Shown here: positions 1 through 19,636 of the stretch, one piece after another
How the letters are laid out: the number at the start of each line of letters is the position of its first letter
How positions within the stretch are numbered: position 1 is the first letter of the stretch
Assembly (NCBI GenBank): GCA_040752075.1
Contig: JBFMFQ010000001.1
Span: 342-64,341, forward strand
Source of the DNA: Candidatus Zixiibacteriota bacterium
Lineage (GTDB): Bacteria; Zixibacteria; MSB-5A5; WJJR01
Length of the DNA stretch: 64,000 bases
Reading direction: 5' to 3'
The notes under the pieces: model-generated
What the model was told of the DNA's origin: nothing
Database searches by the model: none
The model's input: the letters and a program-made list of their open reading frames with translations, nothing else
Program-made: the position numbers and the translations under genes

Positions 1-79
1 GGTGTCCGTTCACCGGCGGAATTGGTATTGTATCCGTTCTCCGGGTGCGCCCGGCCCGGCCGCACGGAAGTTTAAGCCG

Positions 80-2385: not shown

Positions 2386-2948
2386 TCTTGCTCGTCGACA
2401 ACTACGACTCTTTCACCTACAACCTCTACCAGTACCTTGCCGAGCTGGGTGCGCAGGTGAAGGTGCTGCGCAATGATGCCGTCGATGTGGAGAGCATCAG
2501 TGCAAAGTATGAAGCGGTGGTTCTCTCTCCCGGACCGGGCCGTCCCAGTGAGGCGGGCGTCACCCCGGAGATCATCCGCCGTCACTCCGGCGCAATCCCG
2601 ATTCTGGGTGTCTGCCTCGGGCATCAGGCCATCGGCGAGGTGTTCGGCGGCAAAGTGGTCAGGGCCGCGCGGCTGATGCACGGCAAAACGTCGATGATTC
2701 GGCACAATGGCCGTGGATTATTCACCGGAATGGAGAATCCCTTCGAGGCCACACGCTACCATTCGCTGGTCGTTGAGAGGCAAAGCTGCCCCAACGTGCT
2801 GAAGGTGACCGCCGAGACCGAGGACGGCACCATCATGGGATTGAAGCATGTCAAACACCCCACGGTCGGTGTCCAGTTTCACCCGGAGTCCATCCTGACC
2901 CGCGCCGGCAAAGGTCTGCTCAAGAATTTTCTGGAGGGGAAGTACTGA
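2361..2948 (+). CDS. trpG: Anthranilate synthase component II (glutamine amidotransferase)
   Basis: LLVDNYDSFTYNLYQYL. Catalytic GVCLGHQ Cys. HPES His-Glu. Alternative GTG start at 2382 overlaps the trpE stop (GTGA). Confidence 0.85.
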   Translation: MEAGAKAVILLVDNYDSFTYNLYQYLAELGAQVKVLRNDAVDVESISAKYEAVVLSPGPGRPSEAGVTPEIIRRHSGAIPILGVCLGHQAIGEVFGGKVVRAARLMHGKTSMIRHNGRGLFTGMENPFEATRYHSLVVERQSCPNVLKVTAETEDGTIMGLKHVKHPTVGVQFHPESILTRAGKGLLKNFLEGKY

Positions 2949-2970
2949 GATTCCCCGAGATGACGCCGCC

Positions 2971-3987
2971 ATGCTGAAACCGTTCATCAAATCCGCGATC
3001 GAGCGCATCAATCTCTCCGTTGACGATGCCGAGACGGCCATGGGCGTCGTGATGCGCGGAGATGCGACCCCGGCGCAGATCGCCGCATGGCTGGTTGCGC
3101 TCCGTCAAAAGGGGGAAACCCCGGCGGAGATCACCGGGTTTGCACGGGCGATGCGGGCCGCCATGGTGACGATCCCCACGGTGCCGGAAGGGGCCATCGA
3201 TACATGCGGCACCGGAGGAGACGGGCTCTCGACCTTCAACATCTCCACGGCAGCCGCATTGATCACCGCATCGGCCGGTGTCCCGGTCGCCAAGCACGGC
3301 AACCGGGCGGTGTCCTCCAATTGCGGTTCCGCGGATGTACTGCACGCCCTCGGGTTCGAGATTGATCCGGGAGTGGAGGTTGTCACCAGCGCCCTCAACG
3401 AGATTCGTTTCGCATTTCTCTTTGCGCCGCGATTCCATCCGGCGATGAAACATGCGGTCGGGCCGCGCCGGGAGATCGGGGTGCGCACGGTCTTCAATAT
3501 TCTCGGACCTCTCTGCAATCCGGCGGGCGTCAAACGGCAGATTGTCGGCGTCTATGATCCGGCGGGAATCACCCGCATCGCGGAGGTGCTTGGCGCTCTC
3601 GGGTCGGAGCGGGTAATTGTCGTGTCTGGCCCAGGTGGTGCCGATGAACTCCTGCCGACCGGTGAAAACCTGGTGGCAGAGTGGAATGACGGCTCGCTAT
3701 CGAATTACTCCCTCGGCCCCTCGGACTTCGGCCTGCCGGAGATCAGGTTGGCCGACCTCAAGGGCACCGATGCGGATGGCAACGCGGAGGTCATTCGTGG
3801 CATCGCCCGCGGCGATCGCGGACCGATGACGGAGACAGCCCTGCTGAACGCCGGCGCGGCAATCTGGGTTGCCGGACGGGCCGAGACTCTGCGCGAGGGA
3901 ATTGCGGCGGCCCGCGCGGCGGTGGCCGATGGCCGTCTCCACGCGCTGTTGGAATCAGCCGCGAGAGCTAGCCGGTCGCGTACATGA
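2971..3987 (+). CDS. trpD: Anthranilate phosphoribosyltransferase
   Basis: GETPAEITGFARAMR, DTCGTGGDG, VAKHGNRAVSS motifs. ATG at 2971. Confidence 0.85.
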   Translation: MLKPFIKSAIERINLSVDDAETAMGVVMRGDATPAQIAAWLVALRQKGETPAEITGFARAMRAAMVTIPTVPEGAIDTCGTGGDGLSTFNISTAAALITASAGVPVAKHGNRAVSSNCGSADVLHALGFEIDPGVEVVTSALNEIRFAFLFAPRFHPAMKHAVGPRREIGVRTVFNILGPLCNPAGVKRQIVGVYDPAGITRIAEVLGALGSERVIVVSGPGGADELLPTGENLVAEWNDGSLSNYSLGPSDFGLPEIRLADLKGTDADGNAEVIRGIARGDRGPMTETALLNAGAAIWVAGRAETLREGIAAARAAVADGRLHALLESAARASRSRT

Positions 3988-4003
3988 GCGCAGTGTCAAC
4001 CAA

Positions 4004-5353
4004 ATGACCAACGGCATCGATACAACTCCTCCGTCGACCGTCAGGCAGATGCCCGACAGGTCCCCAATTCCTCCGGGAGGGCGGCGGCACCTCCCGGCAT
4101 GGTGGGGGGAATACCTCGAGAATCTCCGACGAATCTCGGTGCCGGCCCGCTGGTTCTTGCTGGGCACGACACTGATCGGGATGGCGTGGGCCACCTTCAT
4201 GCTGCTTTTCAACCTCTATATGAAGGAGCGAGGCTTCGCCGAGGGAACGATTGGGCATGTTTTGTCCATGCAGTCGTTTGGCATGGTTGCCCTGGCCGTC
4301 CCGGCAGCAATGATGGTGGCGCGGCGCTCGGCGCGCGGCCTTATGATCATGGCGAGCATCGGGGTTGCCATGGGCTTCTTATGGCAGACGTTGGCGGGCC
4401 CCGCTTCCATCATCCTGCTGGCCTCGTTTGCCACCGGTTCGATGATCGCGTTCTCGCGTGTGATGGGTTCGCCCTTCCTGATGAAGCACTCGACGCACGC
4501 GGAGCGTACCCATGTCTTTTCGCTGAGTTTCGCGGCGACGTTGAGTTCCGGGTTACTCACGCATTTCGCCGCGGGCTCCCTTCACCGCGTGCTCACGGGA
4601 ATCTCCGGGTCGCCCTTGACCGCCTACCGCATCGTCCTCCTGCTCGGCACCAGTTGCGCATTGGGCGCGGCGCTTGCCTTCTCACGCATCCCGCGTGGTG
4701 TGGTTGGCGTGCGCGGCCCCCGCCTCCCCTTGCGGGAGTTCTGGCGTGTTAAGGGACGGCTTCTGTTCCGGCTGATCTTTCCCTTCTTCCTTGTTGGAAT
4801 GGGCGCGGGACTGATCATCCCGTTTCTGAATTTGTACTTCAACGACCGCTTCGGACTAAGCGCACAGACCATCGGCTTCTACTATGCCCTTGTGCAGGCC
4901 TCGATGATTGTCGGCGTCATGATCGGCCCGGAACTCGCCCGCCGGTTCGGCATGATCCGCACCATAGTCTTTTCCGAGTGGGCGTCTCTGCCCTTTATGG
5001 TCATCATGGCGTTTACTCACAACCTGCCCTTGGCCACCGCGGCCTTTGTTGTGCGCGGTGCGCTCATGAACCTGGGCGTGCCGATTTCCAACAACTACAT
5101 GATGGAACGGGTGGGGGAATCCGATCGCGCCCTGGCCAACAGCTGGTCAATGGTGTCCTGGTCACTCTCCTGGGCGATTACCACCTGGATCGGCGGCACA
5201 ATGATCGAGCATCTCGGATATGAGATTCCTCTCATCGCCGCCAGTGTGCTCTATGTCGCCTCCAGCGTCATGTACTACGTGTATTTCCGGAACGAGGACA
5301 TCCATGCCGGGCGGCCGCCGGTGTCCGGTGGCGTGCGACCGGGCGAGGAATAG
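4004..5353 (+). CDS. MFS-type transporter (about 12 TM) embedded in the trp operon
   Basis: Multiple hydrophobic helices. Located between trpD and trpC on the same strand. ATG at 4004 is 17 nt after the trpD stop. An upstream extension to 3869 would overlap trpD and is discounted. Confidence 0.6.
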   Translation: MTNGIDTTPPSTVRQMPDRSPIPPGGRRHLPAWWGEYLENLRRISVPARWFLLGTTLIGMAWATFMLLFNLYMKERGFAEGTIGHVLSMQSFGMVALAVPAAMMVARRSARGLMIMASIGVAMGFLWQTLAGPASIILLASFATGSMIAFSRVMGSPFLMKHSTHAERTHVFSLSFAATLSSGLLTHFAAGSLHRVLTGISGSPLTAYRIVLLLGTSCALGAALAFSRIPRGVVGVRGPRLPLREFWRVKGRLLFRLIFPFFLVGMGAGLIIPFLNLYFNDRFGLSAQTIGFYYALVQASMIVGVMIGPELARRFGMIRTIVFSEWASLPFMVIMAFTHNLPLATAAFVVRGALMNLGVPISNNYMMERVGESDRALANSWSMVSWSLSWAITTWIGGTMIEHLGYEIPLIAASVLYVASSVMYYVYFRNEDIHAGRPPVSGGVRPGEE

Positions 5354-5363
5354 CGGGCAACCG

Positions 5364-6167
5364 ATGGCTGATGCCAGACACACAACAATCCCGGCCGTCT
5401 TAAGGGACATCGTGGCCGCCGCGCAGCGCCGGGCGCAATCGCTGCACCAGACCTCGTCCTTCGGCGAACTGGAATCGAAGGGACGGCGGCGCCAGAAACG
5501 GCCGTTTGCCCTCGCGCTGGAGAAGTGCCGTCCGGCGATCATTGCGGAAGTCAAGAAAGCCTCGCCTTCGAAGGGCGTGTTTCGATCCGACTTCGATCCG
5601 ATCCGGCTGGCCGCGTCGTACCAGGATGGCGGCGCCGCCGCTTTGTCGGTGGTCACAGAGCCCGAGTACTTCCAGGGAAACACCGCCTGGATCGAAGCAT
5701 TGCGCAACTCGTGTCATCTCCCGATTCTGCGGAAGGACTTCCTGATCGAGCCGATCCAGGTGGCCGAATCCGCGGCGGCGGGGGCGGATGCGATCCTGCT
5801 CATCGCCCGGATCTTGACATCATCGCAGCTGGCCGAGTTGACCGAGTCCGCCAAAGCGCTCGATCTCGAGATCCTCTTCGAGGCTCACGATGAGGCAGAC
5901 TTAAGCAAGATTGCCGGCTTGAATCCCGAACTCATCGGGATCAACGCGCGCAATCTGGACGATTTCAGCGTCTCGATGGACACATTCGAACCGCTCCGGA
6001 CCGGGATTCCCGCAAACGCCATGGCGATCGCGGAGAGCGGGCTTGAGAATTACGCCCAGATTAGGGACTTGATGACCACCGGATACCGAGGATTCTTGAT
6101 CGGTGAATCTCTCCTCAAAAGCGGGGATCCGTCCACCCTGTTGCGTACCCTGCGCGGCGAGGGCTGA
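5364..6167 (+). CDS. trpC: Indole-3-glycerol phosphate synthase
   Basis: IAEVKKASPSKG and ALSVVTEPEYFQG motifs typical of TrpC. ATG at 5364. Confidence 0.85.
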   Translation: MADARHTTIPAVLRDIVAAAQRRAQSLHQTSSFGELESKGRRRQKRPFALALEKCRPAIIAEVKKASPSKGVFRSDFDPIRLAASYQDGGAAALSVVTEPEYFQGNTAWIEALRNSCHLPILRKDFLIEPIQVAESAAAGADAILLIARILTSSQLAELTESAKALDLEILFEAHDEADLSKIAGLNPELIGINARNLDDFSVSMDTFEPLRTGIPANAMAIAESGLENYAQIRDLMTTGYRGFLIGESLLKSGDPSTLLRTLRGEG

Positions 6168-6171
6168 TCCA

Positions 6172-6822
6172 ATGCGACGCACACGAATCAAGTTCTGCGG
6201 CATAACCCGCCCGGAAGATGCCCGTGCGGCGGAGGCGGCGGGCTGCGATGCGGTGGGAGTGGTGCTCTGGCCGGGGAGCAAACGCGCGGTGTCCAGAGAT
6301 CAGGCCAAAGAAATCGCCGGGGCTGTCTCGCCAATGATCGCCGTCGTCGGCGTCTTCGTCAGCCCCACCCCGGAGGAAGTTCAAAGCGCCGCGCTGGACA
6401 TCGGGTTGTCTGCTGCACAGTTATCCGGACCACTGGATGAACGCGGATGGGATTCAGTTAACGGGGTTCGACTCCTGCGGGTGATCGGCATGAACAGCGA
6501 CCTCCAGCGGCCGGAACCTTGGCGCGGACTGAGAGACTACGTGCTCGACACGCTCGATGCCAACCACCAGGGGGGAACCGGCCAGGCATTCGATTGGTCG
6601 CTGGTATCGCGCATCGACCACTCGTGGCGGATCTGGCTCGCCGGCGGCTTGAGCCCGGAGAATGTGGACACCGCGATACGGCAAGTCCGCCCCTACGGGG
6701 TCGATGTCTCAAGCGGGATCGAGTCTTCCGTCGGCATCAAGTCTGCCGATCTCATGCAGAGATTCGCGGAGCAGGTTCGCCGGGCGGATGAATCCCTTCG
6801 AACGGACAGGTTGGAACAATGA
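6172..6822 (+). CDS. trpF: Phosphoribosylanthranilate isomerase
   Basis: [13 protein letters not shown]-terminus and TIM-barrel PRAI pattern. ATG at 6172. ATGA overlap with trpB at 6819-6822. Confidence 0.8.
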
Positions 6823-8060
6823 CGCCTGCAAAACACACTCAGCCGGCATCCACCATCCGCGGCCGCGACTACCGTCGCCGACCCGATCGCCGGGGTCGTT
6901 TCGGACGTTTTGGCGGCCGGTACGTGCCTGAAACCCTCATCCCCGCGCTGGATCGGCTGACCCGTGATTTCGAGTCAGCCTGGCGGGACCGCTCATTCCA
7001 GCGCGAGTACCGCGATCTTCTGCGCGAGTATGCCGGGCGTCCGACGCCGCTCTATTTCGCCGAACGCCTGACACGGGAACTCAAGCGCGGCAGGATCTAC
7101 CTGAAACGGGAAGACCTCAACCACACCGGTTCGCACAAACTGAACAATGTGCTCGGGCAGGTTCTTCTGGCGGTGCGGGGCGGGCGCAAACGCGTGATCG
7201 CCGAGACCGGCGCCGGGCAGCACGGCGTCGCCACCGCCACCGTGGCGGCACGCTTCGGCCTCTCGTGCGATGTCTACATGGGGAAACTGGATGTGGAGCG
7301 GCAGGCGCCCAATGTGGCGCGCATGCGCCTGCTCGGAGCGCGGGTCATCCCGGTCGAATCGGGAGCGCAGACGCTGAAAGATGCGACCAACGAGGCGATC
7401 CGCGACTGGGTCACGAATGTGGAATCGACCTTCTATGTCATCGGTTCCGTGGTGGGCCCGCATCCATACCCGTATATGGTGCGTCAGTTCCAGCGGATCA
7501 TCGGCGAGGAAGCCCGGCGTCAGTTCAGGCGTCAGACCGGACGATTGCCGGACTGCCTGATCGCCTGTGTCGGCGGCGGCTCCAACGCGATCGGCTTTTT
7601 CACGGCGTTCCTGCCGGACCAACGGGTGGAACTAATCGGCGCCGAAGCAGCCGGCCATGGGATACGAAGCGGACAACACGCCGCGAGTCTCACTGCGGGG
7701 ACCATCGGGGTCCTGCACGGGTCCATGGGGTATCTGCTCCAGAGCGCAACAGGCCAGATCACCGTGCCGCACTCGATCTCCGCAGGGCTGGACTATCCGG
7801 GAGTAGGCCCCGAACACTCCTTCCTCAAGGACAGCGGACGGGTTCGGTATGTCGCGATCACAGATGATGAGGCGATCGGGGCGTTTCACCTTCTCTCAAG
7901 GCAGGAGGGTATTTTGCCCGCGTTAGAGTCGGCCCACGCCATTGCGGCCCTCTCGCGCCTCCCGCGCGACCGGTCCGGCAAGCGCACTATTGGTGTGTGT
8001 CTTTCCGGACGCGGCGACAAAGACCTGGCGACCGTGACGTCCACCGGAGAGGGGAAGTAG
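6819..8060 (+). CDS. trpB: Tryptophan synthase beta chain
   Basis: [24 protein letters not shown] (PLP Lys), [10 protein letters not shown] motifs. Confidence 0.9.
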
Positions 8061-8063
8061 CCG

Positions 8064-8852
8064 ATGGACTCGCCAATCTCCCGTCTTCGCTCGATCTTTA
8101 TTGATGGCCGGCCGATCATTCCGTTTCTGACCGCCGGTTTCCCGAAGCCGACAGTCTTCCTCGATGCCGTGACCGCCTGTGTCGATGCCGGCGCGGCCGC
8201 GCTGGAAATCGGCGTGCCGTTTTCCGATCCCCTCGCCGACGGACCCACGATTCAACACTCCTCCCAGGTCGCCCTGGCGCAGGGGGTTGATCTTGATGCC
8301 GTCTTCGATCTGACGCAGCGGGTGTGCACGCGCCACGATATCCCTGTCCTTCTGATGGGCTACTTCAACCCGCTTTTGAAGCGCGGACTGGACCGGTTCG
8401 CCTCGGACGTGCGATCGGCCGGCGCATGCGGAACGATTATTCCGGATTGCCCGGTCGATGAGGCGGTGGACTGGATGGCGGCGTCAAGGCGGGTCGGGCT
8501 CGCCAATGTCTTCCTGATCGCACCCACCACCACCGATGAGCGCATCACCGTCATTGACCGCCATTCAACGGCCTTCTCATATTGTGTGTCTGTGGCCGGG
8601 GTGACCGGCGCACGGAGTGGAGTGGCGGCGTCCACGCGTCGTTTCCTGAAACGGGTCGCCGAACGGGCCGAGAAACCCCACGTGGTGGGGTTCGGTATCT
8701 CGAATCCCGCCCACATTCGCGAGTTGCGCGGGCTCGCCGACGGTTTCGTGGTGGGATCGGCCCTGGTGAATACCCTGCGAGACGGAAAGGGTAGAGAACG
8801 CACTCACCGTCTGTCCAATCTTGTCGAGTCGCTGGTCCGGGCGGCTGAGTGA
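8064..8852 (+). CDS. trpA: Tryptophan synthase alpha chain
   Basis: IPFLTAGFP and ALEIGVPFSDPLADGP motifs. Confidence 0.85.
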   Translation: MDSPISRLRSIFIDGRPIIPFLTAGFPKPTVFLDAVTACVDAGAAALEIGVPFSDPLADGPTIQHSSQVALAQGVDLDAVFDLTQRVCTRHDIPVLLMGYFNPLLKRGLDRFASDVRSAGACGTIIPDCPVDEAVDWMAASRRVGLANVFLIAPTTTDERITVIDRHSTAFSYCVSVAGVTGARSGVAASTRRFLKRVAERAEKPHVVGFGISNPAHIRELRGLADGFVVGSALVNTLRDGKGRERTHRLSNLVESLVRAAE

Positions 8853-8873
8853 GTGGCGGTTGTCGGTAGCCGA

Positions 8874-10610
8874 ATGAGCCAGGTGCAATCAGCGACATAC
8901 TTCCAGGAGGTCTGTGACGCGACCGCTGACGCCCTCGTTCGAATGGGAGCGCAAGTCACCGTTCAGACCGTGGCTGATCTCTTTGAATTCCCCGGACGCA
9001 AGGATTTCGGCGATTCGGCGCTCCCCTGCTTTGTACTGGCGCGGGAGATGAAGTTGCCGCCCCCCAAGATTGCCGCAGCCTTGCAGGAGCACTTCCGGAA
9101 CCCAGCATCGGTCGTGCGCACCGCCGCGGTCGGGGGCTATTTCAACATCTGGTACGATCCGGCTGCCATCGCCGACGAAGTACTGCCCGCCATCAGAGCG
9201 GAGGGACGCGCCTATGGATCTTCGACCGAAGGAGCCGGCCGGACCATCTGCATGGATTACTCGCACCCCAACATCGCCAAGCCGTTCGGGGTCGGGCACC
9301 TGCGCTCCACCGTGATCGGGCACTCGCTCAAACGTGTATTCGAGAAGCTCGGGTATGCGACGCGCGGGATCAATCACCTCGGCGACTGGGGCACCCAGTT
9401 CGGACGCCTGATCGTGGCCTACCGGGATTGGGGCGATCCGGCCGAACTCGAGAAAGCGCCGATCCGGCACCTCTACGATCTCTATGTGCGATTCCACGCG
9501 CAGGCAGAGACCGACAAGGCGCTCGAAGAACGCGGACGACAGGAGTTCAAAAAGCTGGAAGACGGTGATCCCGACAATCGCCGTCTGTGGCAGCAGTTCC
9601 GCGACCTTTCGTTGGCGGAGTTCCAGCGGGTCTACCGTCGGCTCGGGGTGACGTTCGATTCGTACGACGGGGAGGCGTTCTTCGAATCCCGCCTGAGCCC
9701 TTTAATTGAACGCCTCACACAATCCGGGGTGGCCTCGGTCGGTGATGATGGCGCCCTGGTGATTCCCGTGGGGGAGGGCGATGAACCGCCGCTTCTCATT
9801 CGCAAGGCGGATGGCGCAACGCTCTACGCCACCCGGGACATCGCCGCGGCGGAATACCGCCACGAGACCTACGACTTCGACCAATGCCTGTACATCGTTG
9901 GCAGCGCGCAAGCGCTGCACTTCAAACAGCTGTTCGCCGCGCTAAAGCGGATGGGGTACGCGTGGGCCGAGCGCATGGCGCACGTCGATTTTGGCTGGGT
10001 CAAGCTCGGGGACACAATGATGTCCACGCGCCGCGGTAACATTGTGTTCCTGGACGAGGTCCTCTCCGAGGCGGTGGCTTTCATTCGTCGAGTCATTGCG
10101 GAGCGCAATCCCAACTTGGGCAACCCGGACCGGGTCGCCGAGGAAGTCGGGGTCGGAGCGGTCGTGTTCTGGATGCTGGCGGTCAAACGCCAAAAGGATG
10201 TGAATTTCGACTGGGCGGATGTCCTGTCGTTCGATGGGCGGACCGGACCGTATGTCCAGTACACGCACGCGCGTGTCAGTTCCCTAATCTCAAAGTGGGG
10301 TAAGCCCATTCCCGGCATTGACGACTGCGATTTCCAGGCATTGCGGACCGACGAAGAAAGACACCTGCTTTTGCAGCTGGCCGACTGGCCGCGCCGGGTT
10401 CGAATGGCCGCCCGTCAGTACGAACCGCAGATCCTGTCGGCCGCCCTGCTGGATATGGCTCAGGCGTACAACAAGTTCTATCAGACCGTCCGCATCCTGG
10501 ACGGCGAACCGGAGGCTGTTCCGGCGCGTGTCCTGCTGGCCGACTGTTTCCGGGAGGTGCTGGCCGATGGGCTGTATCTTCTTGGTCTGGCCGCGCCGGA
10601 GAGAATGTGA
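8874..10610 (+). CDS. argS: Arginine--tRNA ligase
   Basis: Class I aaRS. SHPNIAKPFGVGHLRS (HIGH-like region), MMSTRRGN (KMSK-like), C-terminal DALR-type anticodon-binding region. ATG at 8874. Alternative GTG at 8853 abuts the trpA stop. Confidence 0.8.
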   Translation: MSQVQSATYFQEVCDATADALVRMGAQVTVQTVADLFEFPGRKDFGDSALPCFVLAREMKLPPPKIAAALQEHFRNPASVVRTAAVGGYFNIWYDPAAIADEVLPAIRAEGRAYGSSTEGAGRTICMDYSHPNIAKPFGVGHLRSTVIGHSLKRVFEKLGYATRGINHLGDWGTQFGRLIVAYRDWGDPAELEKAPIRHLYDLYVRFHAQAETDKALEERGRQEFKKLEDGDPDNRRLWQQFRDLSLAEFQRVYRRLGVTFDSYDGEAFFESRLSPLIERLTQSGVASVGDDGALVIPVGEGDEPPLLIRKADGATLYATRDIAAAEYRHETYDFDQCLYIVGSAQALHFKQLFAALKRMGYAWAERMAHVDFGWVKLGDTMMSTRRGNIVFLDEVLSEAVAFIRRVIAERNPNLGNPDRVAEEVGVGAVVFWMLAVKRQKDVNFDWADVLSFDGRTGPYVQYTHARVSSLISKWGKPIPGIDDCDFQALRTDEERHLLLQLADWPRRVRMAARQYEPQILSAALLDMAQAYNKFYQTVRILDGEPEAVPARVLLADCFREVLADGLYLLGLAAPERM

Positions 10611-10740
10611 TGAGTGATACAGCCGATACAGTGAGAAGACAATCGAATGGGGATCGTCGAAGTCCTGTTTTGGGCCGGGTCCCCACTTTCCCAACTGGAG
10701 CCGGATCAACCCCGGACTCCGCCGCACCCGGAGCAAGATC

Positions 10741-11757
10741 ATGTTAATCGTCATGGACGCCCACGCCACCTCCCAGCAGGTCGATCATGTCTGCGAGGAG
10801 ATCAAGGGGATGGGATTGATTGCCCATCCGATGCCGGGCGCGCAGCGCACCGCCATCGGTATCACGGGAAATAAGAGCGCCGTGGATGCGTCGCGGCTCG
10901 AGCAGATGCCCGGCGTGGTCCAGGTCATTCATGTCACGGCGCCTTACAAACTGGTCAGCCGCGAATTCCATGAGCAGGACACGCTCGTGGATGTAAATGG
11001 CGTCAAGGTTGGCGGCGACCACTTCGTCATCATGGCCGGCCCCTGCGCGGTCGAATCGGCCGAGCAGATCGATGACATCGCCGGACGGCTGAAGTCCTCC
11101 GGGGCCCACATCCTGCGGGGCGGCGCATTTAAGCCGCGCACCTCGCCATACAGTTTTCAGGGCATGGGGGAAAAGGGGCTCCAGATCCTGGCGGAGGCCG
11201 GCAAACGCCACGGTCTTCCCACTGTGACCGAGGCGATCGACAACGAGTCGCTCGATCTGGTGGCCCGCTACGCCGACATGATCCAAATCGGCGCGCGCAA
11301 CATGCAGAACTTCTCGCTTTTGCGTCATGCCGGACGCAGCCGCAAACCGGTGCTCCTTAAGCGCGGCATGTCGGCGACTCTCGAGGAATTGCTGATGGCC
11401 GCCGAGTACATTGTCAACGAAGGCAACCCGAATGTCGTTCTCTGCGAGCGCGGTGTGCGCACGTTCGCGAATCACACGCGAAACACACTCGACTTGTCCG
11501 CCATTCCATTTGTCCAGCGCGCGAGCCACCTTCCGATCATTGCCGATCCCAGCCACGGTACCGGGCGTCGCGACAAGGTGATTCCACTGTCCTGTGCGTC
11601 CGTGGCCGTCGGCGCCGATGGGCTCATGGTGGAGGTGCATCCGCACCCCGATTCCGCGTTGTCCGACGGATCTCAATCGCTGTTCCCCGACCAGTTCGCG
11701 GAGCTGATGAAACGCGTTTCGGATATCGCGAAGGTCGTTGGCCGGCATCTCGCCTGA
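10741..11757 (+). CDS. 3-deoxy-7-phosphoheptulonate (DAHP) synthase, type I-beta, with N-terminal ferredoxin-like regulatory domain
   Basis: GPCAVES, LRGGAFKPRTSPYSFQG, DPSHGTG motifs shared with KDO8P/DAH7P synthases. About 90-aa N-terminal extension before the barrel. Confidence 0.8.
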   Translation: MLIVMDAHATSQQVDHVCEEIKGMGLIAHPMPGAQRTAIGITGNKSAVDASRLEQMPGVVQVIHVTAPYKLVSREFHEQDTLVDVNGVKVGGDHFVIMAGPCAVESAEQIDDIAGRLKSSGAHILRGGAFKPRTSPYSFQGMGEKGLQILAEAGKRHGLPTVTEAIDNESLDLVARYADMIQIGARNMQNFSLLRHAGRSRKPVLLKRGMSATLEELLMAAEYIVNEGNPNVVLCERGVRTFANHTRNTLDLSAIPFVQRASHLPIIADPSHGTGRRDKVIPLSCASVAVGADGLMVEVHPHPDSALSDGSQSLFPDQFAELMKRVSDIAKVVGRHLA

Positions 11758-13166
11758 TGCCCTCAACCCGACTGGATCCCATGCCAACCACCACACGAAG
11801 CGAACTGAAGATCGAACCGGCGCGCAAAATTGTCGGTCACTATTCCCCGCCGCCGGATAAGTCCATCGCGCATCGCGCGGTCATTCTCTCCGCTCTCGCG
11901 GAGGGCCGCTCGACGGTCGAGCCCCTCTCGCGCGCGGCCGATGTCGCCTCGACCGTGTCGTGCCTGCGTCAACTCGGAGTCTCGATTCAAATTGATGGAG
12001 ACACCTGTGTCATCGACAGCCCGGGCGTGGACAAATGGATGGCACCGGAGCGCGCGCTTGATTGCGGAAACTCGGGGACCACTTTGCGCCTCTTGGCCGG
12101 TTGTCTTGCCGGACGGAGATTCGACGCCACCCTGATCGGGGATGATTCCCTATCGACACGTCCGATGGGGCGCATTGCGCATCCGCTGGTTCAGATGGGG
12201 GCGCGAATCGACCTTTCCGAAGGGGACACAGCCCCCATGACCGTAAGGGGCGCACGGCTCCGGGGAATCGACTATCGTCTGCCGGTGGCGTCCGCCCAGG
12301 TCAAATCCGCAGTTCTCCTGGCGGGGCTTTCCGCCGATGGTCCGGTCTCGGTGGTGGAAGTCCATCCCTCGCGCGACCACACAGAGCGGATGCTGGCCGA
12401 GGCAGGAGTCGATTGCAGGACTCATTTGGCGCCGCGCCCGCCCGACCGCCGTGAAATCCTGGCGCAGGATATTCCATTGGATTCACTCCCGCCGGTCCCA
12501 GACTATCACCACCGGGTCGTGCTCGGCGACCGCCGGCAGCTCACCAGGAACGACTGGACAATCCCCGGCGATTTCTCGGCGGCCGCGTTTTTCATTGCCG
12601 CGGCGCTCGGGGCACGTCGGTCCGACCTCATCCTCGCCAACGTGGGATTGAATCCGACACGCACGGGTCTGTTGAAAGTCCTTCGCCGCATGGGGGCGGA
12701 AATGGAGGTCGAACGGACCAGCCACGGCGCCGGCGAGCCATTCGGCGTGATTCATGTCCAAAGCGCCAGTCACCTCAAGGCGGTCAAGGTTTCCGAATCC
12801 GAGATACCCTCCCTGATCGATGAACTCCCGGTTTTGGCCATGCTGGCGGCCCGTGCGGATGGCGTGACCGTCATTCGCGGCGCCGCCGAATTGCGAAAGA
12901 AAGAAACCGATCGGATTGCCGCGGTGAGCCGCAACTTGCGGGCCATGGGCGGCAAGGTGGCGGAGTTGGAGGATGGCTGGGCCATCGAGGGGCCGACCGA
13001 TTGGCACGGCGCCGAAATCGATCCCCAGGGAGATCACCGCATCGCGATGGCGTTTGCCATCGCCGCCCTGTGGGCGGATTCGCCCAGCATGATCCGAACG
13101 CCGTCGGTCGCCGCGGTCTCGGATCCGGATTTCTTCACGAGCCTAAGCGCGCTTGTGCACAATTGA
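11757..13166 (+). CDS. aroA: 3-phosphoshikimate 1-carboxyvinyltransferase (EPSP synthase)
   Basis: PPDKSIAHRAVILSAL (PGDKSISHR-like), LDCGNSGTTLRLL, RKKETDRI motifs. TGATG overlap with the upstream stop. Alternative ATG at 11781. Confidence 0.85.
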   Translation: MPSTRLDPMPTTTRSELKIEPARKIVGHYSPPPDKSIAHRAVILSALAEGRSTVEPLSRAADVASTVSCLRQLGVSIQIDGDTCVIDSPGVDKWMAPERALDCGNSGTTLRLLAGCLAGRRFDATLIGDDSLSTRPMGRIAHPLVQMGARIDLSEGDTAPMTVRGARLRGIDYRLPVASAQVKSAVLLAGLSADGPVSVVEVHPSRDHTERMLAEAGVDCRTHLAPRPPDRREILAQDIPLDSLPPVPDYHHRVVLGDRRQLTRNDWTIPGDFSAAAFFIAAALGARRSDLILANVGLNPTRTGLLKVLRRMGAEMEVERTSHGAGEPFGVIHVQSASHLKAVKVSESEIPSLIDELPVLAMLAARADGVTVIRGAAELRKKETDRIAAVSRNLRAMGGKVAELEDGWAIEGPTDWHGAEIDPQGDHRIAMAFAIAALWADSPSMIRTPSVAAVSDPDFFTSLSALVHN

Positions 13167-13196
13167 TTCCAGCCGCTTCATGCGCACCGGGCATTC

Positions 13197-14072
13197 ATGA
13201 ATCCCAGGACTCCCAATGAACGGGTCGAGCGCGCGGTCTACGGGGTTCTCGGTCATGAGATCGGATACTCGCTCTCCCCGAAGATATTTCGGACCGTATT
13301 CGATGCGTTGGAATGGCCGGCCGTATATGCGCTCTTTGATCGCCGACCAGCGGAGGTGCCTCGTTTCGTTTCGGCGGCAGCGACACTTGGAATTCTCGGA
13401 CTCAACGTGACCAAGCCATTCAAGGTGTCAATCGTCGCGTACATGGACCGGTTGGATGATTCCGCCCGTTGCACTGGGGCGGTCAACACAATTCGTTTCG
13501 AGGGACGGCGATCGACCGGTTACAACACGGACATTGCCGGGGTAATCGCCGCTCTCAAACCTCATGCCGCGCGGCTGCGTGGGCAAACGGCGCTGATCTT
13601 GGGCGCGGGCGGAGCGGCGCGGGCTGTTGCACTTACACTGGAGCGCACCTTCCGCATGCGCCGATTGACATTCGCAGTAAGATCCAGGCGGGCGGGGGAA
13701 CGAATGATCGACTCGTTCGCCACTGCCGCCGAACCATCGGCGATCCTTGAGACCATTCCTTACGAGGCAGACCCGATCCGGGACCGATTGAACCATTGCG
13801 CCTTGCTTGTCAACGCCACGCCGACAGGGACCTCCGGGCCTGCGTCCGGGAGCCCCCTGCCGCGCGGAGTGAAGTTGACAGCGGAAACGCTGGTCTTCGA
13901 TCTGGTCTACCAGCCCCGGGAAACTGCACTGCTAAAACTGGCGGTCCGCTCTGGTTGCCGGGCAGTCGGCGGCTGGCCGATGCTCGTTGCGCAAGCCGAA
14001 GAGTCGTTCCGCATTTGGACCGGACGACGCTTTCCGGTATCATCCCGTCGCAAACTGATGATGTGGAAATGA
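13197..14072 (+). CDS. aroE: Shikimate dehydrogenase
   Basis: YGVLGHEIGYSLSP, NVTKPFK (catalytic Lys), YNTDIAG and GAGGAARAV (NADP fold). Confidence 0.8.
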   Translation: MNPRTPNERVERAVYGVLGHEIGYSLSPKIFRTVFDALEWPAVYALFDRRPAEVPRFVSAAATLGILGLNVTKPFKVSIVAYMDRLDDSARCTGAVNTIRFEGRRSTGYNTDIAGVIAALKPHAARLRGQTALILGAGGAARAVALTLERTFRMRRLTFAVRSRRAGERMIDSFATAAEPSAILETIPYEADPIRDRLNHCALLVNATPTGTSGPASGSPLPRGVKLTAETLVFDLVYQPRETALLKLAVRSGCRAVGGWPMLVAQAEESFRIWTGRRFPVSSRRKLMMWK

Positions 14073-14521
14073 GCACGATCCCCCCAACACCAGTCGTCAC
14101 CAGCACCGCCGCGATCCTGAAGCTCGGAACCAGACGCGGGCTTGAGACATTCTGGATGTTGATGCGGATCATGATCCCGGTCTACATCATCGTCACGCTG
14201 CTTGATCACACACCGATCCTGCCGGCCATCGCCAGATTCTTCGAGCCGTTCATGGGGATCTGGAAGCTCCCGGGCGAAGCGGCGCTGGCGATGGTGCTGG
14301 GACATTTCGTGAATCTGTATGCCGCCCTCGCCGTTATTGCGGCCGGTGGATGGAATGCCACCGCGGTCACGGTCGCGGCCATTGTGTTGGGTGTGTCGCA
14401 CTCCCATGTCATGGAAGCGGCGATTTTCCGTCAGATGCGGGCGCCCGCGCTGATCCTGGTTGCGCTTCGCGTCACACTCGGCTGGTCCCTTGGGTGGCTG
14501 GTGGCGCTCCTTCTGCCATAG
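14069..14521 (+). CDS. Nucleoside-recognition (Gate) domain membrane protein, SpmA-like
   Basis: Hydrophobic 150-aa protein with the Gate-domain pattern (FFEPFMGIWKLPGEAALAMVLGHFVNLYAA). ATGA overlap with the aroE stop. Confidence 0.55.
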   Translation: MSTIPPTPVVTSTAAILKLGTRRGLETFWMLMRIMIPVYIIVTLLDHTPILPAIARFFEPFMGIWKLPGEAALAMVLGHFVNLYAALAVIAAGGWNATAVTVAAIVLGVSHSHVMEAAIFRQMRAPALILVALRVTLGWSLGWLVALLLP

Positions 14522-14538
14522 CAGAGAATTCGCAGAAT

Positions 14539-15012
14539 ATGGAACTCGTCAGGGAAATCGCTCAGGGGCTGGGAGGTCTGATGCTTAAGATCTTCCTCAT
14601 CGTGATGCCCCTGATTGTCTTTCTGGAATGGGCCAAGACCCGACGCTGGTTCTCACGGTTCATCGTGTCGTCTGAGCCGGTCTTCAAACCGATCGGCTTT
14701 CGCCCGCAGTCGTTATTCCCGCTTCTCATCGGGATCCTCTTCGGGATCTCATACGGCGCCGGGGTTCTCATCCCGCAGGCCCGTTCCGGCGAACTCGACC
14801 GAAAGCAGGTGTTTCTGATCGGTGCGTTCCTGAGTGTGTGTCATGCAATCGTGGAGGACACACTGCTGTTTGTCGCACTCGGAGGGAACGGACTCATCAT
14901 CGTGGGTGTTCGCATACTCATGGCGCTCCTCGTGGTGTTTGCCCTCTCACGGCTTAACTGGCCCGCTGAGGAGCCGGTCGTGATCGGAGAGGTTAGCAAG
15001 AAGGCCGCATGA
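14539..15012 (+). CDS. Nucleoside-recognition (Gate) domain membrane protein, SpmB-like
   Basis: Second Gate-type membrane protein (GISYGAGVLIPQARSGELD). Stop overlaps the aroK start (ATGA at 15009-15012). Confidence 0.55.
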   Translation: MELVREIAQGLGGLMLKIFLIVMPLIVFLEWAKTRRWFSRFIVSSEPVFKPIGFRPQSLFPLLIGILFGISYGAGVLIPQARSGELDRKQVFLIGAFLSVCHAIVEDTLLFVALGGNGLIIVGVRILMALLVVFALSRLNWPAEEPVVIGEVSKKAA

Positions 15013-15566
15013 TCGTCACCGCACGACGCCATCTGTATTTGGCCGGTTTCATGGGAACCGGAAAGACAGCCACCGGCCTCCACGTCGCGGATGCCCTCAG
15101 ACGGCCATTCTATGATCTGGACACGGTGGTGGAGCAAATCACCGGACGTCGCATTCCGGAAGTCTTTGCCATTGACGGCGAAGCGGCCTTTCGGCAGCGA
15201 GAATGCCGGGCGCTGCGCAGCATTGTTGGCGCCTCGTCATCGGTCATCGCCTTGGGGGGCGGCGCGCCAACGATCGGCGCGATCCGCGCGCTCGTGCGCG
15301 AGAGTGGAAGGGCGGTTCTTCTGACCGCGGATCTGCCATCGATGTGGTCGCGTCTGAGGGGAGATGAGTCGCGGCCTCTGCTCGAAGGCGAAGATGGCGA
15401 TCGACCAGCGTCGTTATCCGAGTTTACCGCGCGTGTGCAGCCGATCTTGAAAGCCCGGGAGGACGCCTACCGTGCGATTGCCGATTGGACTCTCGATACT
15501 TCGGCGCTGACTCCCGTGGAAGCGGGACGCCGTACAGCGGAGTGGTGGCTTGCCCAAGCTGACTGA
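15009..15566 (+). CDS. aroK: Shikimate kinase
   Basis: Walker A GFMGTGKT. LDTVVE. Size about 185 aa. Confidence 0.85.
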   Translation: MIVTARRHLYLAGFMGTGKTATGLHVADALRRPFYDLDTVVEQITGRRIPEVFAIDGEAAFRQRECRALRSIVGASSSVIALGGGAPTIGAIRALVRESGRAVLLTADLPSMWSRLRGDESRPLLEGEDGDRPASLSEFTARVQPILKAREDAYRAIADWTLDTSALTPVEAGRRTAEWWLAQAD

Positions 15567-15597
15567 GAAGAGGCGCGCGGGTGCGCGCAATCCGGAA

Positions 15598-16674
15598 ATG
15601 AAGGGACGGATTCCTGGGCGTCTCATTCCGGTTCACGCCGGAGCCGGACTGCGGTCCGCTCTGACCTCCCTGTTGGGTGAGGCGCGCACGATTGAATTGG
15701 TGACCGACCGTCATGTCGCGAAACACTGGCTGGTCCAGGTTCGCTCCATCCTCAAGCGTGCCAACTGCGCCGTGCACACGACGACGCTGCCGCCGGGCGA
15801 ATCCATGAAAAATGCCCGCACGGTCGCGCATCTGCATGATCTGTGGTTTCGGCACCGTTGCGATCGCGGCACTCCAGTCATCGCACTGGGGGGCGGGGCG
15901 GTCGGAGACACCGTGGGATTTGCCGCCGCCACATTCCTGCGTGGACTGCCGCTCTGGCAGGTGCCGACGACGCTTCTGGCACAGGTCGATGCCGCCATCG
16001 GCGGCAAAGTCGGCATCAACCACCCGCGTGGGAAGAACCTCATCGGGTGCTTTTACCAGCCGGCAGGAATCCTCATCGACCCTGAGTTTCTCACAACACT
16101 TCCCCCGGCCGAGGTGATTTCCGGACTGGCCGAGGTCGTCAAGTATGGCGTGATTGCCGATCCGGTGCTCTTCGAAAGGTGCGAAAAGAGCATCGGCTCG
16201 TGGATCTCCGGGCGTAAGGAAGTCGGGCTCGATGTGATCAAACGCTGCGTTCGCATCAAGCTGAGTGTGGTGGAGTCCGATGAAACAGACTCCGGTCTGC
16301 GGCGAATTCTCAATTTCGGTCACACGATCGGCCATGCGCTGGAACGCTGGGCCGACTATAAGGGAATTCGACATGGGGAGGCGGTGGCCGTCGGCATGAT
16401 CGGCGCCGGGTACATGGCGAGGGCCCGCCGTCTCTTCGACAGCGGAGAGTTCGACCGGCTCCTGAATGTCTGCCACCACTTGGCCCCAGTAGGGATGAGG
16501 CGATTTCCCGCGACTGAGATACTCCGTCATCTGGGCGTGGACAAAAAGCGCGCATCCGGCCGCAACATCTGGATCCTGCCGCGGGCGCTGGGTCGCGTTG
16601 AGATCACATCTCAAGTGACCGACAGAGAGGTTAGAAGGGCCGTCGCTTTTCTCAATGAGTGGATGACAAGTTAA
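15598..16674 (+). CDS. aroB: 3-dehydroquinate synthase
   Basis: ALGGGAVGDTVGFAAATF, GGKVGINHPRGKNLIGCFYQP, HTIGHALE metal-binding motifs. Alternative TTG start at 15550. Confidence 0.85.
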   Translation: MKGRIPGRLIPVHAGAGLRSALTSLLGEARTIELVTDRHVAKHWLVQVRSILKRANCAVHTTTLPPGESMKNARTVAHLHDLWFRHRCDRGTPVIALGGGAVGDTVGFAAATFLRGLPLWQVPTTLLAQVDAAIGGKVGINHPRGKNLIGCFYQPAGILIDPEFLTTLPPAEVISGLAEVVKYGVIADPVLFERCEKSIGSWISGRKEVGLDVIKRCVRIKLSVVESDETDSGLRRILNFGHTIGHALERWADYKGIRHGEAVAVGMIGAGYMARARRLFDSGEFDRLLNVCHHLAPVGMRRFPATEILRHLGVDKKRASGRNIWILPRALGRVEITSQVTDREVRRAVAFLNEWMTS

Positions 16675-16707
16675 ATGCATCGAGTACCGTCGAAGGAGTC
16701 CGCCCCC

Positions 16708-17145
16708 ATGAGCCGTCTGATTGTCGTCATCAATGGACCGAACTTAGACCGGCTGGGAAAGCGCGAGCCGGAGGTCTACGGTCGCGACACGCTGGAGGAC
16801 ATCAACGCCCGCATCGCGGCCCACGCCAAATCGGCCGGGCTGGATGTCGAGTTTTTTCAGTCGAACCACGAAGGCGACCTGATCGATTGCATCCACGACG
16901 CCGCCGACTCCGCGCTCGGGATCATTCTGAATCCCGGCGGGCTGACCCACACATCGGTTGCACTGCGGGATGCGGTCTCCTCGGTTTCAATCCCGGTCAT
17001 TGAGGTTCACATTTCCAACATCTTCGCCCGCGAACCGTTTCGTCACCAATCCATGGTCTCCGGCGCCTGCCGCGGGGTCATCTCCGGGCTCGGGGCAACC
17101 GGGTACATTCTTGCAGTCGATTACTTGAAGATCATCTCCGGCTAG
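16708..17145 (+). CDS. aroQ: 3-dehydroquinate dehydratase, type II
   Basis: LIVVINGPNLDRLGKREPEVYG and VHISNIFAREPFRHQS motifs. AGGAG RBS 9 nt upstream of ATG 16708. Confidence 0.85.
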   Translation: MSRLIVVINGPNLDRLGKREPEVYGRDTLEDINARIAAHAKSAGLDVEFFQSNHEGDLIDCIHDAADSALGIILNPGGLTHTSVALRDAVSSVSIPVIEVHISNIFAREPFRHQSMVSGACRGVISGLGATGYILAVDYLKIISG

Positions 17146-17233
17146 CGTCTCCGATTTCCGTAGTCTCGAATCGGCCGTTTCCACAGATTGGACAACCCTC
17201 CGGAATCTCGCCGGGAATTCGGGGGGGATTGCC

Positions 17234-18613
17234 ATGTCAACCAAGACGACATCCGCCGCCGAACGGGACATCCAGACCATTCTGACGGGGCATCCCTACC
17301 GCGCCATATTGCGGCTCGCATGGCCGGCCACCCTGGCCATGCTCCTGCACACGCTCTTTTCAATCACCGATGCGATCTGGGTCGGCCGGCTCGGCGCCGT
17401 GCCGATTGCAGCGGTGATCTCGGCGACTTTTATCGTGTGGATACTCCTGTCGTTGACGTCTGTTCTGTCCACCGGGGTGGTGGCCATGGTCGCCCGGCAC
17501 ATCGGCGCGGGAGACAGGGACACGGCGCGCGAGGTGGCGGAGGAGAGCTTCCGGTTTGCCCTCATTTACGCCTTCGCCATTACCGTAACCGGTCTCCTGC
17601 TGCGACGGTACCTCTTCGCGCTGATGGACCTGGCGCCGGATGTTGCCAGACTGGGCGAGTCGTACATGCAAGTTTATTTCAGCGCCAGCGTTCTGGTGGT
17701 CTTCGTCGAGTGGGCCGGATCGGTGTTTCGCGCCTCGGGCAATACCCGGCTGCCCTTGGTTGTGACATCAACGGCCGTGGTTCTCAATATCGGGCTCGAC
17801 CCGCTGTTGATTTTTGGCTGGGGGCCGGTTCCCCGTCTTGGCGCAACCGGGGCGGCGGTGGCGACCATGATTGCCTATCTGGCTGCCTCGGTGATCTTCG
17901 TCGTCCTCCTCCGTGGTTCGAAACTGCCCTTTCCGTTGCACCTCCGTCTCATTGGACCGATCGACTGGTCACGCATCCGACGTTTGGTGACGATTGGCCT
18001 TCCCATCTCGATTTCCGGCATATCCTTCTCCGTCATCTACCTCTTTGTCAACCGGATCACGGCCCAGTTCGGGACACCGGCGGTGGCGGCGCTGGGAATC
18101 GGCAACCGCATCGAGTCGATCAATTACCTGGTTGCCTACGGTTGCGCCACCGCCGTGGCCACCCTGGTCGGCCAGAACCTCGGCGCGCGGAATCCGGATC
18201 GCGCCGCCGAACTCACGAACAAGACTGTCCTCCTGGTCTCCGCGTTCACCGGAGCCATGACCGTGGTCTTTCTCACCTTCCCTGAATCGATTATGCGGAT
18301 CTTCGTGGACGACCCGGCGGTCCTCGAAGCGGGGAAGGACTACGTGCGCATCCTCGCCCTGTCCCAGATTTTGATGGGATGGGAGATCGTGTTGGAAGGC
18401 GCCTTCTCCGGCTCCGGCGACACCATCCCGCCGATGGCCGTGTCCATTGTCGGCTCGGTCCTGAGAATCCCGCTGGCCTGGTTTCTGGCCGTGTCGCTAG
18501 GATGGGGGGTTGCGGGGGTTTGGTGGGCAATCAGCATCTCCACCCTGATTAAGGGGACCGCGGTGTACATCTGGTTTTCGCTCGGTCACTGGAAGCACCG
18601 GACCGTCCATTAG
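17234..18613 (+). CDS. MATE family efflux transporter
   Basis: 12-TM protein with the MATE N-terminus pattern (ILRLAWPATLAMLLHTLFSITDAIWVGRLG). Duplicated halves. Confidence 0.7.
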   Translation: MSTKTTSAAERDIQTILTGHPYRAILRLAWPATLAMLLHTLFSITDAIWVGRLGAVPIAAVISATFIVWILLSLTSVLSTGVVAMVARHIGAGDRDTAREVAEESFRFALIYAFAITVTGLLLRRYLFALMDLAPDVARLGESYMQVYFSASVLVVFVEWAGSVFRASGNTRLPLVVTSTAVVLNIGLDPLLIFGWGPVPRLGATGAAVATMIAYLAASVIFVVLLRGSKLPFPLHLRLIGPIDWSRIRRLVTIGLPISISGISFSVIYLFVNRITAQFGTPAVAALGIGNRIESINYLVAYGCATAVATLVGQNLGARNPDRAAELTNKTVLLVSAFTGAMTVVFLTFPESIMRIFVDDPAVLEAGKDYVRILALSQILMGWEIVLEGAFSGSGDTIPPMAVSIVGSVLRIPLAWFLAVSLGWGVAGVWWAISISTLIKGTAVYIWFSLGHWKHRTVH

Positions 18614-18661
18614 GGCATTTCCGTTCTTGAGAGAACCGCCACGGCCACCTATCCTCACCCC

Positions 18662-19636
18662 ATGGCCGCCTCACCAACAGGCTGGGTGTCCGATGGCGAG
18701 TTCGTTCACCACAACGCCTCCATCGATCATCCGGAGCGCCCGGAACGCCTCGTCAGCATAACCGCACATCTGACACACACAGGGTTGTTGGAGCGATTGG
18801 TCGAGTGGCCCGCGATCCCTGCCGCCGATGAAGATTTGATGCGAGTCCACACCCGGGCCTACCTCACCATGATCGAGCGATCCGAGGGGCGCTGGTTGGA
18901 TCCCGACACCTACGTCGGCAGGAACTCGCCCGCCATCGCCCGGCTGGCCGCCGGAGCGGTTCAGAGTGCCGCGCTAGGCGTCTGGCGGGGCGAGCTGACG
19001 AACGCATTCTGCGCGGTGCGCCCTCCGGGGCACCACGCGCTTCCGGACCGTGCCATGGGGTTTTGTCTCTACAACAACATCGCCATCGCCGCGAAGTCCG
19101 TGCTGCATGCTGATCCCGATGCGCGGGTGTTCATCGTGGATTGGGATGTCCACCACGGCAACGGCACGCAGGCCATCTTCTACGAAGACGCGAGTGTCCT
19201 GTACGCCTCTGTTCACCAGTACCCTTTCTACCCGGGGACCGGCGCCCTGCACGAGACCGGGCGGGGTAAAGGCGCGGGCACGACGGTGAATCGTCCACTT
19301 CCGGCGGGAAGCGGGGACAAGGAATTCCTCGGAGCGATCACGGACATTATTGATAATCACGCCCGTCCATTTTGTCCGGATCTGGTCATGATCTCCGCCG
19401 GGTTTGATGCCCATGAGTCGGATCCCCTGGCCGGTCTGAATGTCACAACGCATGGTTTTGGCGTGGCGACGAGGCTGGTCTGCGAATTCGCGGCGGAGGT
19501 GTGCGCAGGGCGTGTGCTCTCGGTACTCGAAGGCGGGTACAATGTGCACGCGCTGGCCGAGTGTGCGGAAGTCCACCTCGAAGAGCTTCTGGCGGCGGCG
19601 ATGGCACGACACGGGAATCGGGCACACGCGAATTAA
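18662..19636 (+). CDS. Histone deacetylase-family protein (AcuC / acetylpolyamine amidohydrolase-like)
   Basis: DVHHGNGTQ, FYPGTG, GFDAHESDPL motifs of arginase/deacetylase-fold HDACs. Confidence 0.75.
   Translation: MAASPTGWVSDGEFVHHNASIDHPERPERLVSITAHLTHTGLLERLVEWPAIPAADEDLMRVHTRAYLTMIERSEGRWLDPDTYVGRNSPAIARLAAGAVQSAALGVWRGELTNAFCAVRPPGHHALPDRAMGFCLYNNIAIAAKSVLHADPDARVFIVDWDVHHGNGTQAIFYEDASVLYASVHQYPFYPGTGALHETGRGKGAGTTVNRPLPAGSGDKEFLGAITDIIDNHARPFCPDLVMISAGFDAHESDPLAGLNVTTHGFGVATRLVCEFAAEVCAGRVLSVLEGGYNVHALAECAEVHLEELLAAAMARHGNRAHAN

Follow-up and report, generated by a model that had tools for sequence, protein, structure and literature searches.

The Gate domain occurs in several pairs of small membrane proteins, among them SpmA and SpmB, whose genes sit in the dacB operon, and E. 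coli YjiG and YjiH, two adjacent inner-membrane proteins. The function of YjiG has been called "elusive" (PMC13311989), and our literature search on YjiG returned no function for it. A longer relative, YvoD of B. subtilis, is encoded in the operon hprK-lgt-yvoD-yvoE-yvoF; this operon serves lipoprotein modification, yet yvoD is dispensable for that modification (PMC12345273). SpoVV (YlbJ) of B. subtilis is also Gate/CNT-like and carries the small aromatic dicarboxylate dipicolinic acid, DPA (PMC5629000). Here we describe two genes from a 64,000-nucleotide stretch of a Candidatus Zixiibacteriota bacterium genome (assembly GCA_040752075.1, contig JBFMFQ010000001.1, positions 342 to 64,341; hereafter the window), gene A (14069-14521, plus strand, 150 aa) and gene B (14539-15012, plus strand, 157 aa), which lie between aroE and aroK. 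We put the probability at about 0.5 for the full reading that A and B, which are paralogous, encode the halves of one Gate/CNT-superfamily membrane transporter in a split, YvoD-type form that rides in the operon as a co-expressed housekeeping passenger, and we regard it as highly probable that they make up a two-subunit Gate/CNT-like transporter of whatever substrate. To a known but uncharacterised family of transporters we thus add a new, split member whose operon setting is notable.

Both proteins matched the Pfam Gate model PF07670 above its gathering score of 29.6 bits, A with 40.0 bits (E 5.7e-10) and B, narrowly, with 30.1 bits (E 7.2e-7), and both are hydrophobic proteins with an all-helical prediction and, by the Kyte-Doolittle scale, at least four hydrophobic segments each. 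A preliminary description made from the letters of this DNA had proposed two Gate-domain membrane proteins, to be checked against this very model, and both genes bear the proposal out. The family lies at the edge of what the model captures, and two divergent orthologues, A of locus L083 and B of locus L084, scored below its gathering threshold. Profile-profile comparison showed A and B to be homologous to each other (hhalign probability 97%). AlphaFold2 modeled A with a pLDDT of 79 and B with a pLDDT of 84, and the best structural match, obtained with a predicted model, was to the CNT nucleoside transporters. Sequence searches of the PDB with A and with the B profile detected no solved structure, a Foldseek comparison of the B model against the PDB gave nothing significant, and an NCBIfam search at E values up to 10 assigned neither protein to a curated family and brought up no SpmA or SpmB model. 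In 32-sequence alignments, A carried the motifs LPGEAA...NLYAA...SHSxxME and B the motifs GISYGAG and CHAIVEDTLLF. Invariant in A were P37, P60, L67, P68, G69, G78, N82, Y84, A86, L107, H111, E116 and R134, of which N82, Y84, H111, E116 and R134 are polar; the invariant polar residues of B were Y72, H102, E106, D107, T108 and R125, with C101 nearly invariant. Public proteins identical to A and B and of the same lengths (P0001 and P0064), from a Zixibacteria metagenome-assembled genome, support the start codons chosen here.

The family to which the pair belongs is large: an exhaustive profile search returned 992 representatives at E values up to 1e-3, or roughly 1,000 at 50% identity. It includes the B. 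subtilis YvoD type and is related to E. coli YjiG. A scan of a genome collection with the B alignment found 190 relatives, from which 80 loci were kept, and A was followed directly by B in every one of the 78 loci whose contig permits the comparison. Of the 150 best family representatives, roughly one in three is a single-chain fusion of 310-340 aa, with the B profile falling on its C-terminal half (E 1e-42 to 1e-49) and the A paralogue forming its N-terminal half. Because such natural fusions occur, A and B are expected to act as one unit. Annotated fused examples come from Nitratireductor, Ponticoccus and Parabacteroides; the Nitratireductor homologue, on plasmid pOM-1 (L085, 5968-6969, 333 aa), has benzoate-CoA ligase family, IclR, carboxymuconolactone decarboxylase family, PaaI thioesterase and AraC genes as neighbors.

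Comparison with the described systems places the pair closest to the YvoD-type fusions (about 310-340 aa), which belong to the same family by profile, have their halves in the same A-then-B order and also sit in an operon that can carry out its known function without them. They differ in being one polypeptide rather than two genes and in their operon context. A fused gene was found in an operon reading hprK-lgt-[fusion]-HAD phosphatase-hexapeptide transferase, which is the position of yvoD, and the identification of fused homologues with yvoD rests on this position. Two paralogous Gate halves, their A-then-B order, and the motifs of the first and second half were all found in the window pair, as expected of a split or fused YvoD-type protein. 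YjiG aligned with A over its residues 12-104 (hhalign 97.7%), a homology confined to the N-terminal two-thirds; the YjiG model NF007811 gave A 33.4 bits against a cutoff of 111 and did not hit B, neither YjiG nor YjiH showed significant similarity to B, and the C-terminal His/Glu motifs are not shared. The CNT transporters (CNT3, CNTnw, vcCNT/NupC) are single chains of >400 aa that form trimers and possess extra scaffold, with ~10% sequence identity to the pair, and the CNT likeness of the pair does not imply nucleoside specificity. SpoVV differs in being a sporulation-specific single chain of about 360-400 aa, and its model TIGR02871 gave weak hits to a Clostridial B homologue and to YjiH (17 bits against a cutoff of 305).

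At the window locus the pair is tightly joined to its neighbors. The stop codon of aroE, the shikimate dehydrogenase gene (13197-14072, plus strand; TIGR00507, 203 bits against a cutoff of 200), is the TGA at 14070-14072 and shares bases with the ATG of A at 14069-14071, while the ATG of aroK, the shikimate kinase gene (15009-15566, plus strand; PF01202, E 1.8e-33), at 15009-15011 shares bases with the TGA of B at 15010-15012. Both junctions are thus 4-nt ATGA overlaps (14069-14072 and 15009-15012), just as the preliminary description had it, and a gap of 17 nt separates A from B. The pair lies within a co-directional cluster of ~19 kb (2-19636) in the order dapF-trpEGD-MFS-trpCFBA-argS-DAHPS-aroA-aroE-A-B-aroK-aroB-aroQ-MATE-HDAC, where DAHPS denotes DAHP synthase and HDAC a histone-deacetylase-family gene. 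Most junctions of the cluster are overlapping or very short, and a consensus scan for promoters and terminators found nothing resembling either at the gene junctions; the only terminator-like match fell inside gene A, and its matches were no commoner than in shuffled sequence. Within the Zixibacteria lineage, the pair would be transcribed and translationally coupled as part of an aromatic amino-acid super-operon. We rejected a recent horizontal insertion of A and B, whose overall and third-position GC contents (GC and GC3) match those of the neighboring genes, and we set aside the minus-strand open reading frames across the region as high-GC artefacts, the plus-strand genes having conserved homologues.

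The order aroE-A-B-aroK, overlaps included, recurred in about 13 Zixibacteria-type genomes, so that the synteny survey suggested in the preliminary description shows the arrangement not to be unique to the window genome. The longer block argS-DAHPS-aroA-aroE-A-B-aroK-aroB-aroQ-MATE was present in ten species-level genomes (L001-L010) and in part in L052. Among the 11 loci examined, the window included, the 4-nt aroE/A overlap was found in nine and an overlapping start of aroK within B (4 or 8 nt) was possible in all. In a divergent member of the Zixibacteria (L083), whose A and B are ~47-50% identical to those of the window, the tightly packed order trpA-chorismate mutase-DAHPS-argS-tyrA-DAHPS-aroA-aroE-A-B-aroK-aroB-aroQ was observed, with argS (1769-3466) overlapped on one side by a DAHP synthase gene and on the other by that for prephenate dehydrogenase. 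Within the phylum, then, the aroE-A-B-aroK synteny is genuine, conserved and of long standing.

The distribution of the pair outside this arrangement suggests that it is not bound to the pathway. In two loci, L013 and L030, the order dapF-MFS-argS-A-B-HDAC is colinear with the window and its dapF, MFS and HDAC genes are homologous to those of the window, with no aromatic gene found at the A-B locus; in two others, L048 and L084, dapF-argS-aroA-A-B occurs without aroE or aroK. Linkage of argS to A-B is shared by all four. Because L013 and L030 keep dapF, MFS, argS and HDAC without the aromatic genes, A-B segregates with this non-aromatic backbone, and we infer that the pair goes with the backbone rather than with aroE and aroK under loss, relocation or insertion of the aromatic blocks alike. 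A simultaneous removal of aromatic genes seems simpler than a history in which adjacent junctions received four insertions independently. A neighbor-joining tree placed L013 and L030 inside the same A+B clade in 60 of 60 bootstraps and joined L083 and the main aro-embedded clade as sisters in 27 of 60, which does not polarise gain against loss. The operon also tolerates unrelated genes, since argS is embedded among the aromatic genes and an MFS gene stands between trpD and trpC. Beyond this clade, in ~65 of the 80 loci the pair is found at 35-50% identity with all motif residues kept and no adjacent aro genes; these loci belong to Clostridia, Peptococcaceae, Halobacteroidaceae, Deferribacteres and others, and their neighbors include genes for an RNase-H-like exonuclease, an HD-domain protein, IscS, ThiI, AsnRS, ferritin, Fur, Crp, EamA, NUDIX and FolD proteins and ABC-2 transporters. 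The dispensability of yvoD for the function of its operon provides a precedent for a YvoD-type protein as an operon passenger. Collectively, these data are best read as a co-expressed housekeeping transporter riding in the operon, and we consider it somewhat more likely than not that the pair lacks a specific tie to the shikimate pathway. Four aromatic blocks appear interleaved into, or purged from, the conserved backbone. In L048, a long-read assembly, aroA (6177-7525) is spread over three frames and B (8068-8403) is truncated, probably through frameshift errors rather than as pseudogenes.

Closer inspection of the neighboring genes and leaders offers some guidance to the substrate. When the whole window and 35 related loci were scanned with Rfam at gathering thresholds, no riboswitch was found before A-B, and this search for leaders gave only T-boxes of asnS and a T-box of a Peptococcaceae DAHPS-pheA unit. 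The order T-box-asnS-A-B occurred in five Clostridia loci (L024, L037, L049, L053 and L058) and is the sole regulatory clue; the asnS product of L037 scored 704 bits as an asparagine-tRNA ligase. In L024 (5784-8378), a consensus sigma-70 promoter is followed by the T-box, asnS, A and B, and the 28-nt gap between asnS and A contains a Shine-Dalgarno sequence and no predicted terminator. Such an arrangement would amount to a Clostridial operon in which a T-box controls a tRNA synthetase together with a transporter. An asparaginase gene adjoins the pair in seven further loci, on the opposite strand, and also adjoins the fused protein P0185; metH overlaps one fused homologue, an Lrp/AsnC regulator gene is divergent from another, and in E. 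coli the gene next to yjiG-yjiH is iadA, for isoaspartyl dipeptidase. With the Zixibacteria genes argS, dapF, trp and aro added, these neighbors point to a theme of amino-acid supply, which is suggestive, and an amino-acid-related substrate is accordingly our tentative proposal, held at clearly less than even odds. The remaining hints each come from single lineages: the aromatic-acid catabolism neighbors of the Nitratireductor fusion on the one hand, and on the other a ferritin gene convergent with the pair in six loci of one lineage and a Fur-family gene two genes upstream of it in one lineage, Halobacteroidaceae. The rest of the probability falls to some other, unrelated solute.

Several observations weigh against the reading of the pair as a passenger with an amino-acid theme. 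The aroE-A-B-aroK order and its overlaps persist at ~47-50% A/B identity, which is long for a neutral passenger; aroA remains adjacent to A-B in L048 and L084; four Peptococcaceae loci have a DAHPS-pheA unit 3 kb downstream of A-B; and the aromatic genes of L013 and L030 are known to be absent at the locus only, so that loss and presence elsewhere are both possible. In addition, amino-acid-related neighbors are common in genomes generally, the fused Nitratireductor homologue sits among aromatic-acid catabolism genes, the A model has no specific fold match, and no substrate evidence of any kind is on record for the family. The conserved coupling in about 13 genomes, the aroA and DAHPS-pheA neighbors and the benzoate-CoA ligase, IclR and carboxymuconolactone-decarboxylase-family genes beside the fusion would suit a permease that imports or retains shikimate, quinate or 3-dehydroshikimate, feeds the AroE/AroK node and is kept there for that reason, and the transport of DPA by a Gate/CNT-like protein and the conserved Arg residues of A and B, which could bind a carboxylate, are in keeping with it. 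Countering it are the ~65 orthologous loci with identical motif residues and no aro neighbors, the retention of the pair with argS and HDAC in L013 and L030, and the operon's tolerance of argS. In every one of the four Peptococcaceae loci an opposite-strand gene stands between the DAHPS-pheA unit and A-B, and in L012, the one of the four scanned with Rfam, the unit has its own T-box. A literature search found nothing relevant linking the nucleoside recognition domain, or Zixibacteria, to shikimate. ShiA, the known shikimate transporter, is an MFS protein, and A and B match Gate models only and no MFS model, so that shikimate carriage would need a different fold. The shikimate or quinate transport or channelling role put forward in the preliminary description was thus not sustained, given that most orthologues with all motif residues lie away from aro genes, that argS is embedded in the operon and that L013 and L030 keep the pair; a shikimate-related substrate is an improbable, minority reading. 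The wider proposition, that the Zixibacteria pair is a dedicated aromatic-pathway permease for shikimate, quinate, dehydroshikimate or aromatic amino acids and was selected between aroE and aroK, we regard as unlikely. A sharper version of our own amino-acid proposal is that the pair imports end products, aromatic amino acids in Zixibacteria and Asn/Asp in Clostridia, and is co-regulated with biosynthesis and tRNA synthetases on starvation. The five T-box-asnS-A-B operons, the asparaginase adjacency, the argS-A-B linkage throughout the Zixibacteria-type clade and the amino-acid character of the whole window operon would agree with this, as would L013 and L030, where an importer would still be useful without aromatic genes at the locus. 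It remains doubtful, since different lineages would need different amino acids despite invariant motif residues, the asparaginase gene is on the opposite strand, and many contexts contain no amino-acid gene.

Two further explanations concern the kind of protein rather than its pathway. The membrane domain of FeoB has a Gate motif, LPG...PL..G...N, that aligns with A, and hhalign matched A to E. coli FeoB at the latter's first Gate region (70%), with weak hits to TIGR00437 besides, which raises the idea of a relative lacking the G domain and transporting Fe2+ or some other divalent metal, possibly to supply the metal-dependent DAHP and DHQ synthases. The Cys-His...Glu-Asp of B and the His...Met-Glu of A are typical metal ligands, and the ferritin and Fur-family neighbors would fit. 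However, the cysteine of the FeoB GFGCNVP motif is conserved in neither protein and aligns to Val/Phe in A, the FeoB model score was 8.8 bits against a cutoff of 315, the best structural match was to CNT nucleoside transporters, and the ferritin and Fur neighbors come from one lineage each; a metal permease is therefore very improbable. Even less credible is that A and B are strict orthologues of SpmA and SpmB, which a phylum without sporulation would have borrowed for a role in the envelope or in something akin to spore maturation. Like spmA-spmB they are two adjacent small Gate-domain genes, and the JGI name of some family members reads "spore maturation protein SpmB", but this name is given to A-type and B-type proteins alike and so is a domain-level label only. 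No penicillin-binding carboxypeptidase (dacB-type) gene was among the recurrent neighbors of the 80 loci, and the pair occurs in other contexts, such as beside aroE and aroK. The family also reaches beyond known endospore formers, into Zixibacteria, Deferribacteres, Pseudomonadota and Bacteroidota, which are not known to form endospores. SpmA/B, on the other hand, are listed for all spore-formers, and SpmB has 178 aa (PMC3533761) against the shorter 150 and 157 aa here. The label "SpmA/SpmB-like" that the preliminary description had attached to the pair is not supported beyond a likeness at the level of the Gate superfamily, the nearest named relatives being the YvoD-type fusions and YjiG and the family extending beyond spore-formers.

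Under the reading that we prefer, a split YvoD-type transporter, each half would give one CNT-like repeat, and a pseudo-symmetric A:B heterodimer would presumably carry some small, polar compound through the inner membrane by CNT-like secondary transport, with the conserved His, Glu, Asp, Arg, Tyr and Asn residues presumably lining the substrate site. This solute may be an amino acid or a close metabolite, imported under amino-acid shortage. Of the leads that gene context gives to the substrate of the family, the two clearest are the operon of Zixibacteria and the T-box-asnS-A-B operon of Clostridia. Should the pair prove specific to the pathway, it would be the first Gate/CNT-fold transporter for shikimate, quinate, dehydroshikimate or aromatic amino acids, bringing a new fold to aromatic metabolism, and a dedicated permease would supply the first substrate for the orphan YvoD/YjiG-type family; if it is not pathway-specific, it is an ordinary uncharacterised permease. 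The locus also holds a caution for guilt-by-association, in that the pair is coupled to pathway genes on both sides, yet gene order groups it with the backbone.

The remaining genes of the cluster all lie on the plus strand. Its trp part, trpE-trpG-trpD-[MFS]-trpC-trpF-trpB-trpA, spans 868-8852, and the MFS transporter gene between trpD and trpC (3869-5353) overlaps the end of trpD, leaving its start codon uncertain; the MFS gene that precedes argS in L013 and L030 is homologous to it at 36-40% identity. Beginning one base after the trpA stop (8852/8853), argS (8853-10610) was recognised by its tblastn match to genes of L083 and L084 that carry a Pfam annotation as arginyl-tRNA synthetase. The upstream aro block continues with DAHP synthase (10741-11757) and aroA, encoding EPSP synthase (11757-13166); the downstream block consists, after aroK, of aroB for DHQ synthase (15550-16674) and aroQ for a type II dehydroquinase (16675-17145). 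The MATE efflux gene (17234-18613) stands at the end of the cluster with the HDAC gene (18662-19636), which in L013 and L030 directly follows B. Six shikimate-pathway genes (DAHPS, aroB, aroQ, aroE, aroK and aroA) are thus gathered at 10741-17145; aroC, for chorismate synthase, was found neither in this cluster nor in that of L083, the rest of the window not having been searched for it.

The related loci also yielded several minor observations. In L063, a purine riboswitch (12169-12270, 92.6 bits) and a guanidine-I riboswitch (12255-12359, 65.7 bits) were called on the same strand within 12169-12359; the two hits overlap by 16 nt and could be a tandem or a chimeric call. L073 contains two back-to-back tandem T-box leaders of about 135 bits each (12378-12847) and, near the pair, a fluoride riboswitch on the minus strand (6927-6993). 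The genome of L095 carries an operon of the form hprK-lgt-[fused Gate]-HAD-hexapeptide, and directly upstream of its hprK lies a fused chorismate-binding/aminotransferase-IV gene (1338-3080) resembling pabB/pabC.

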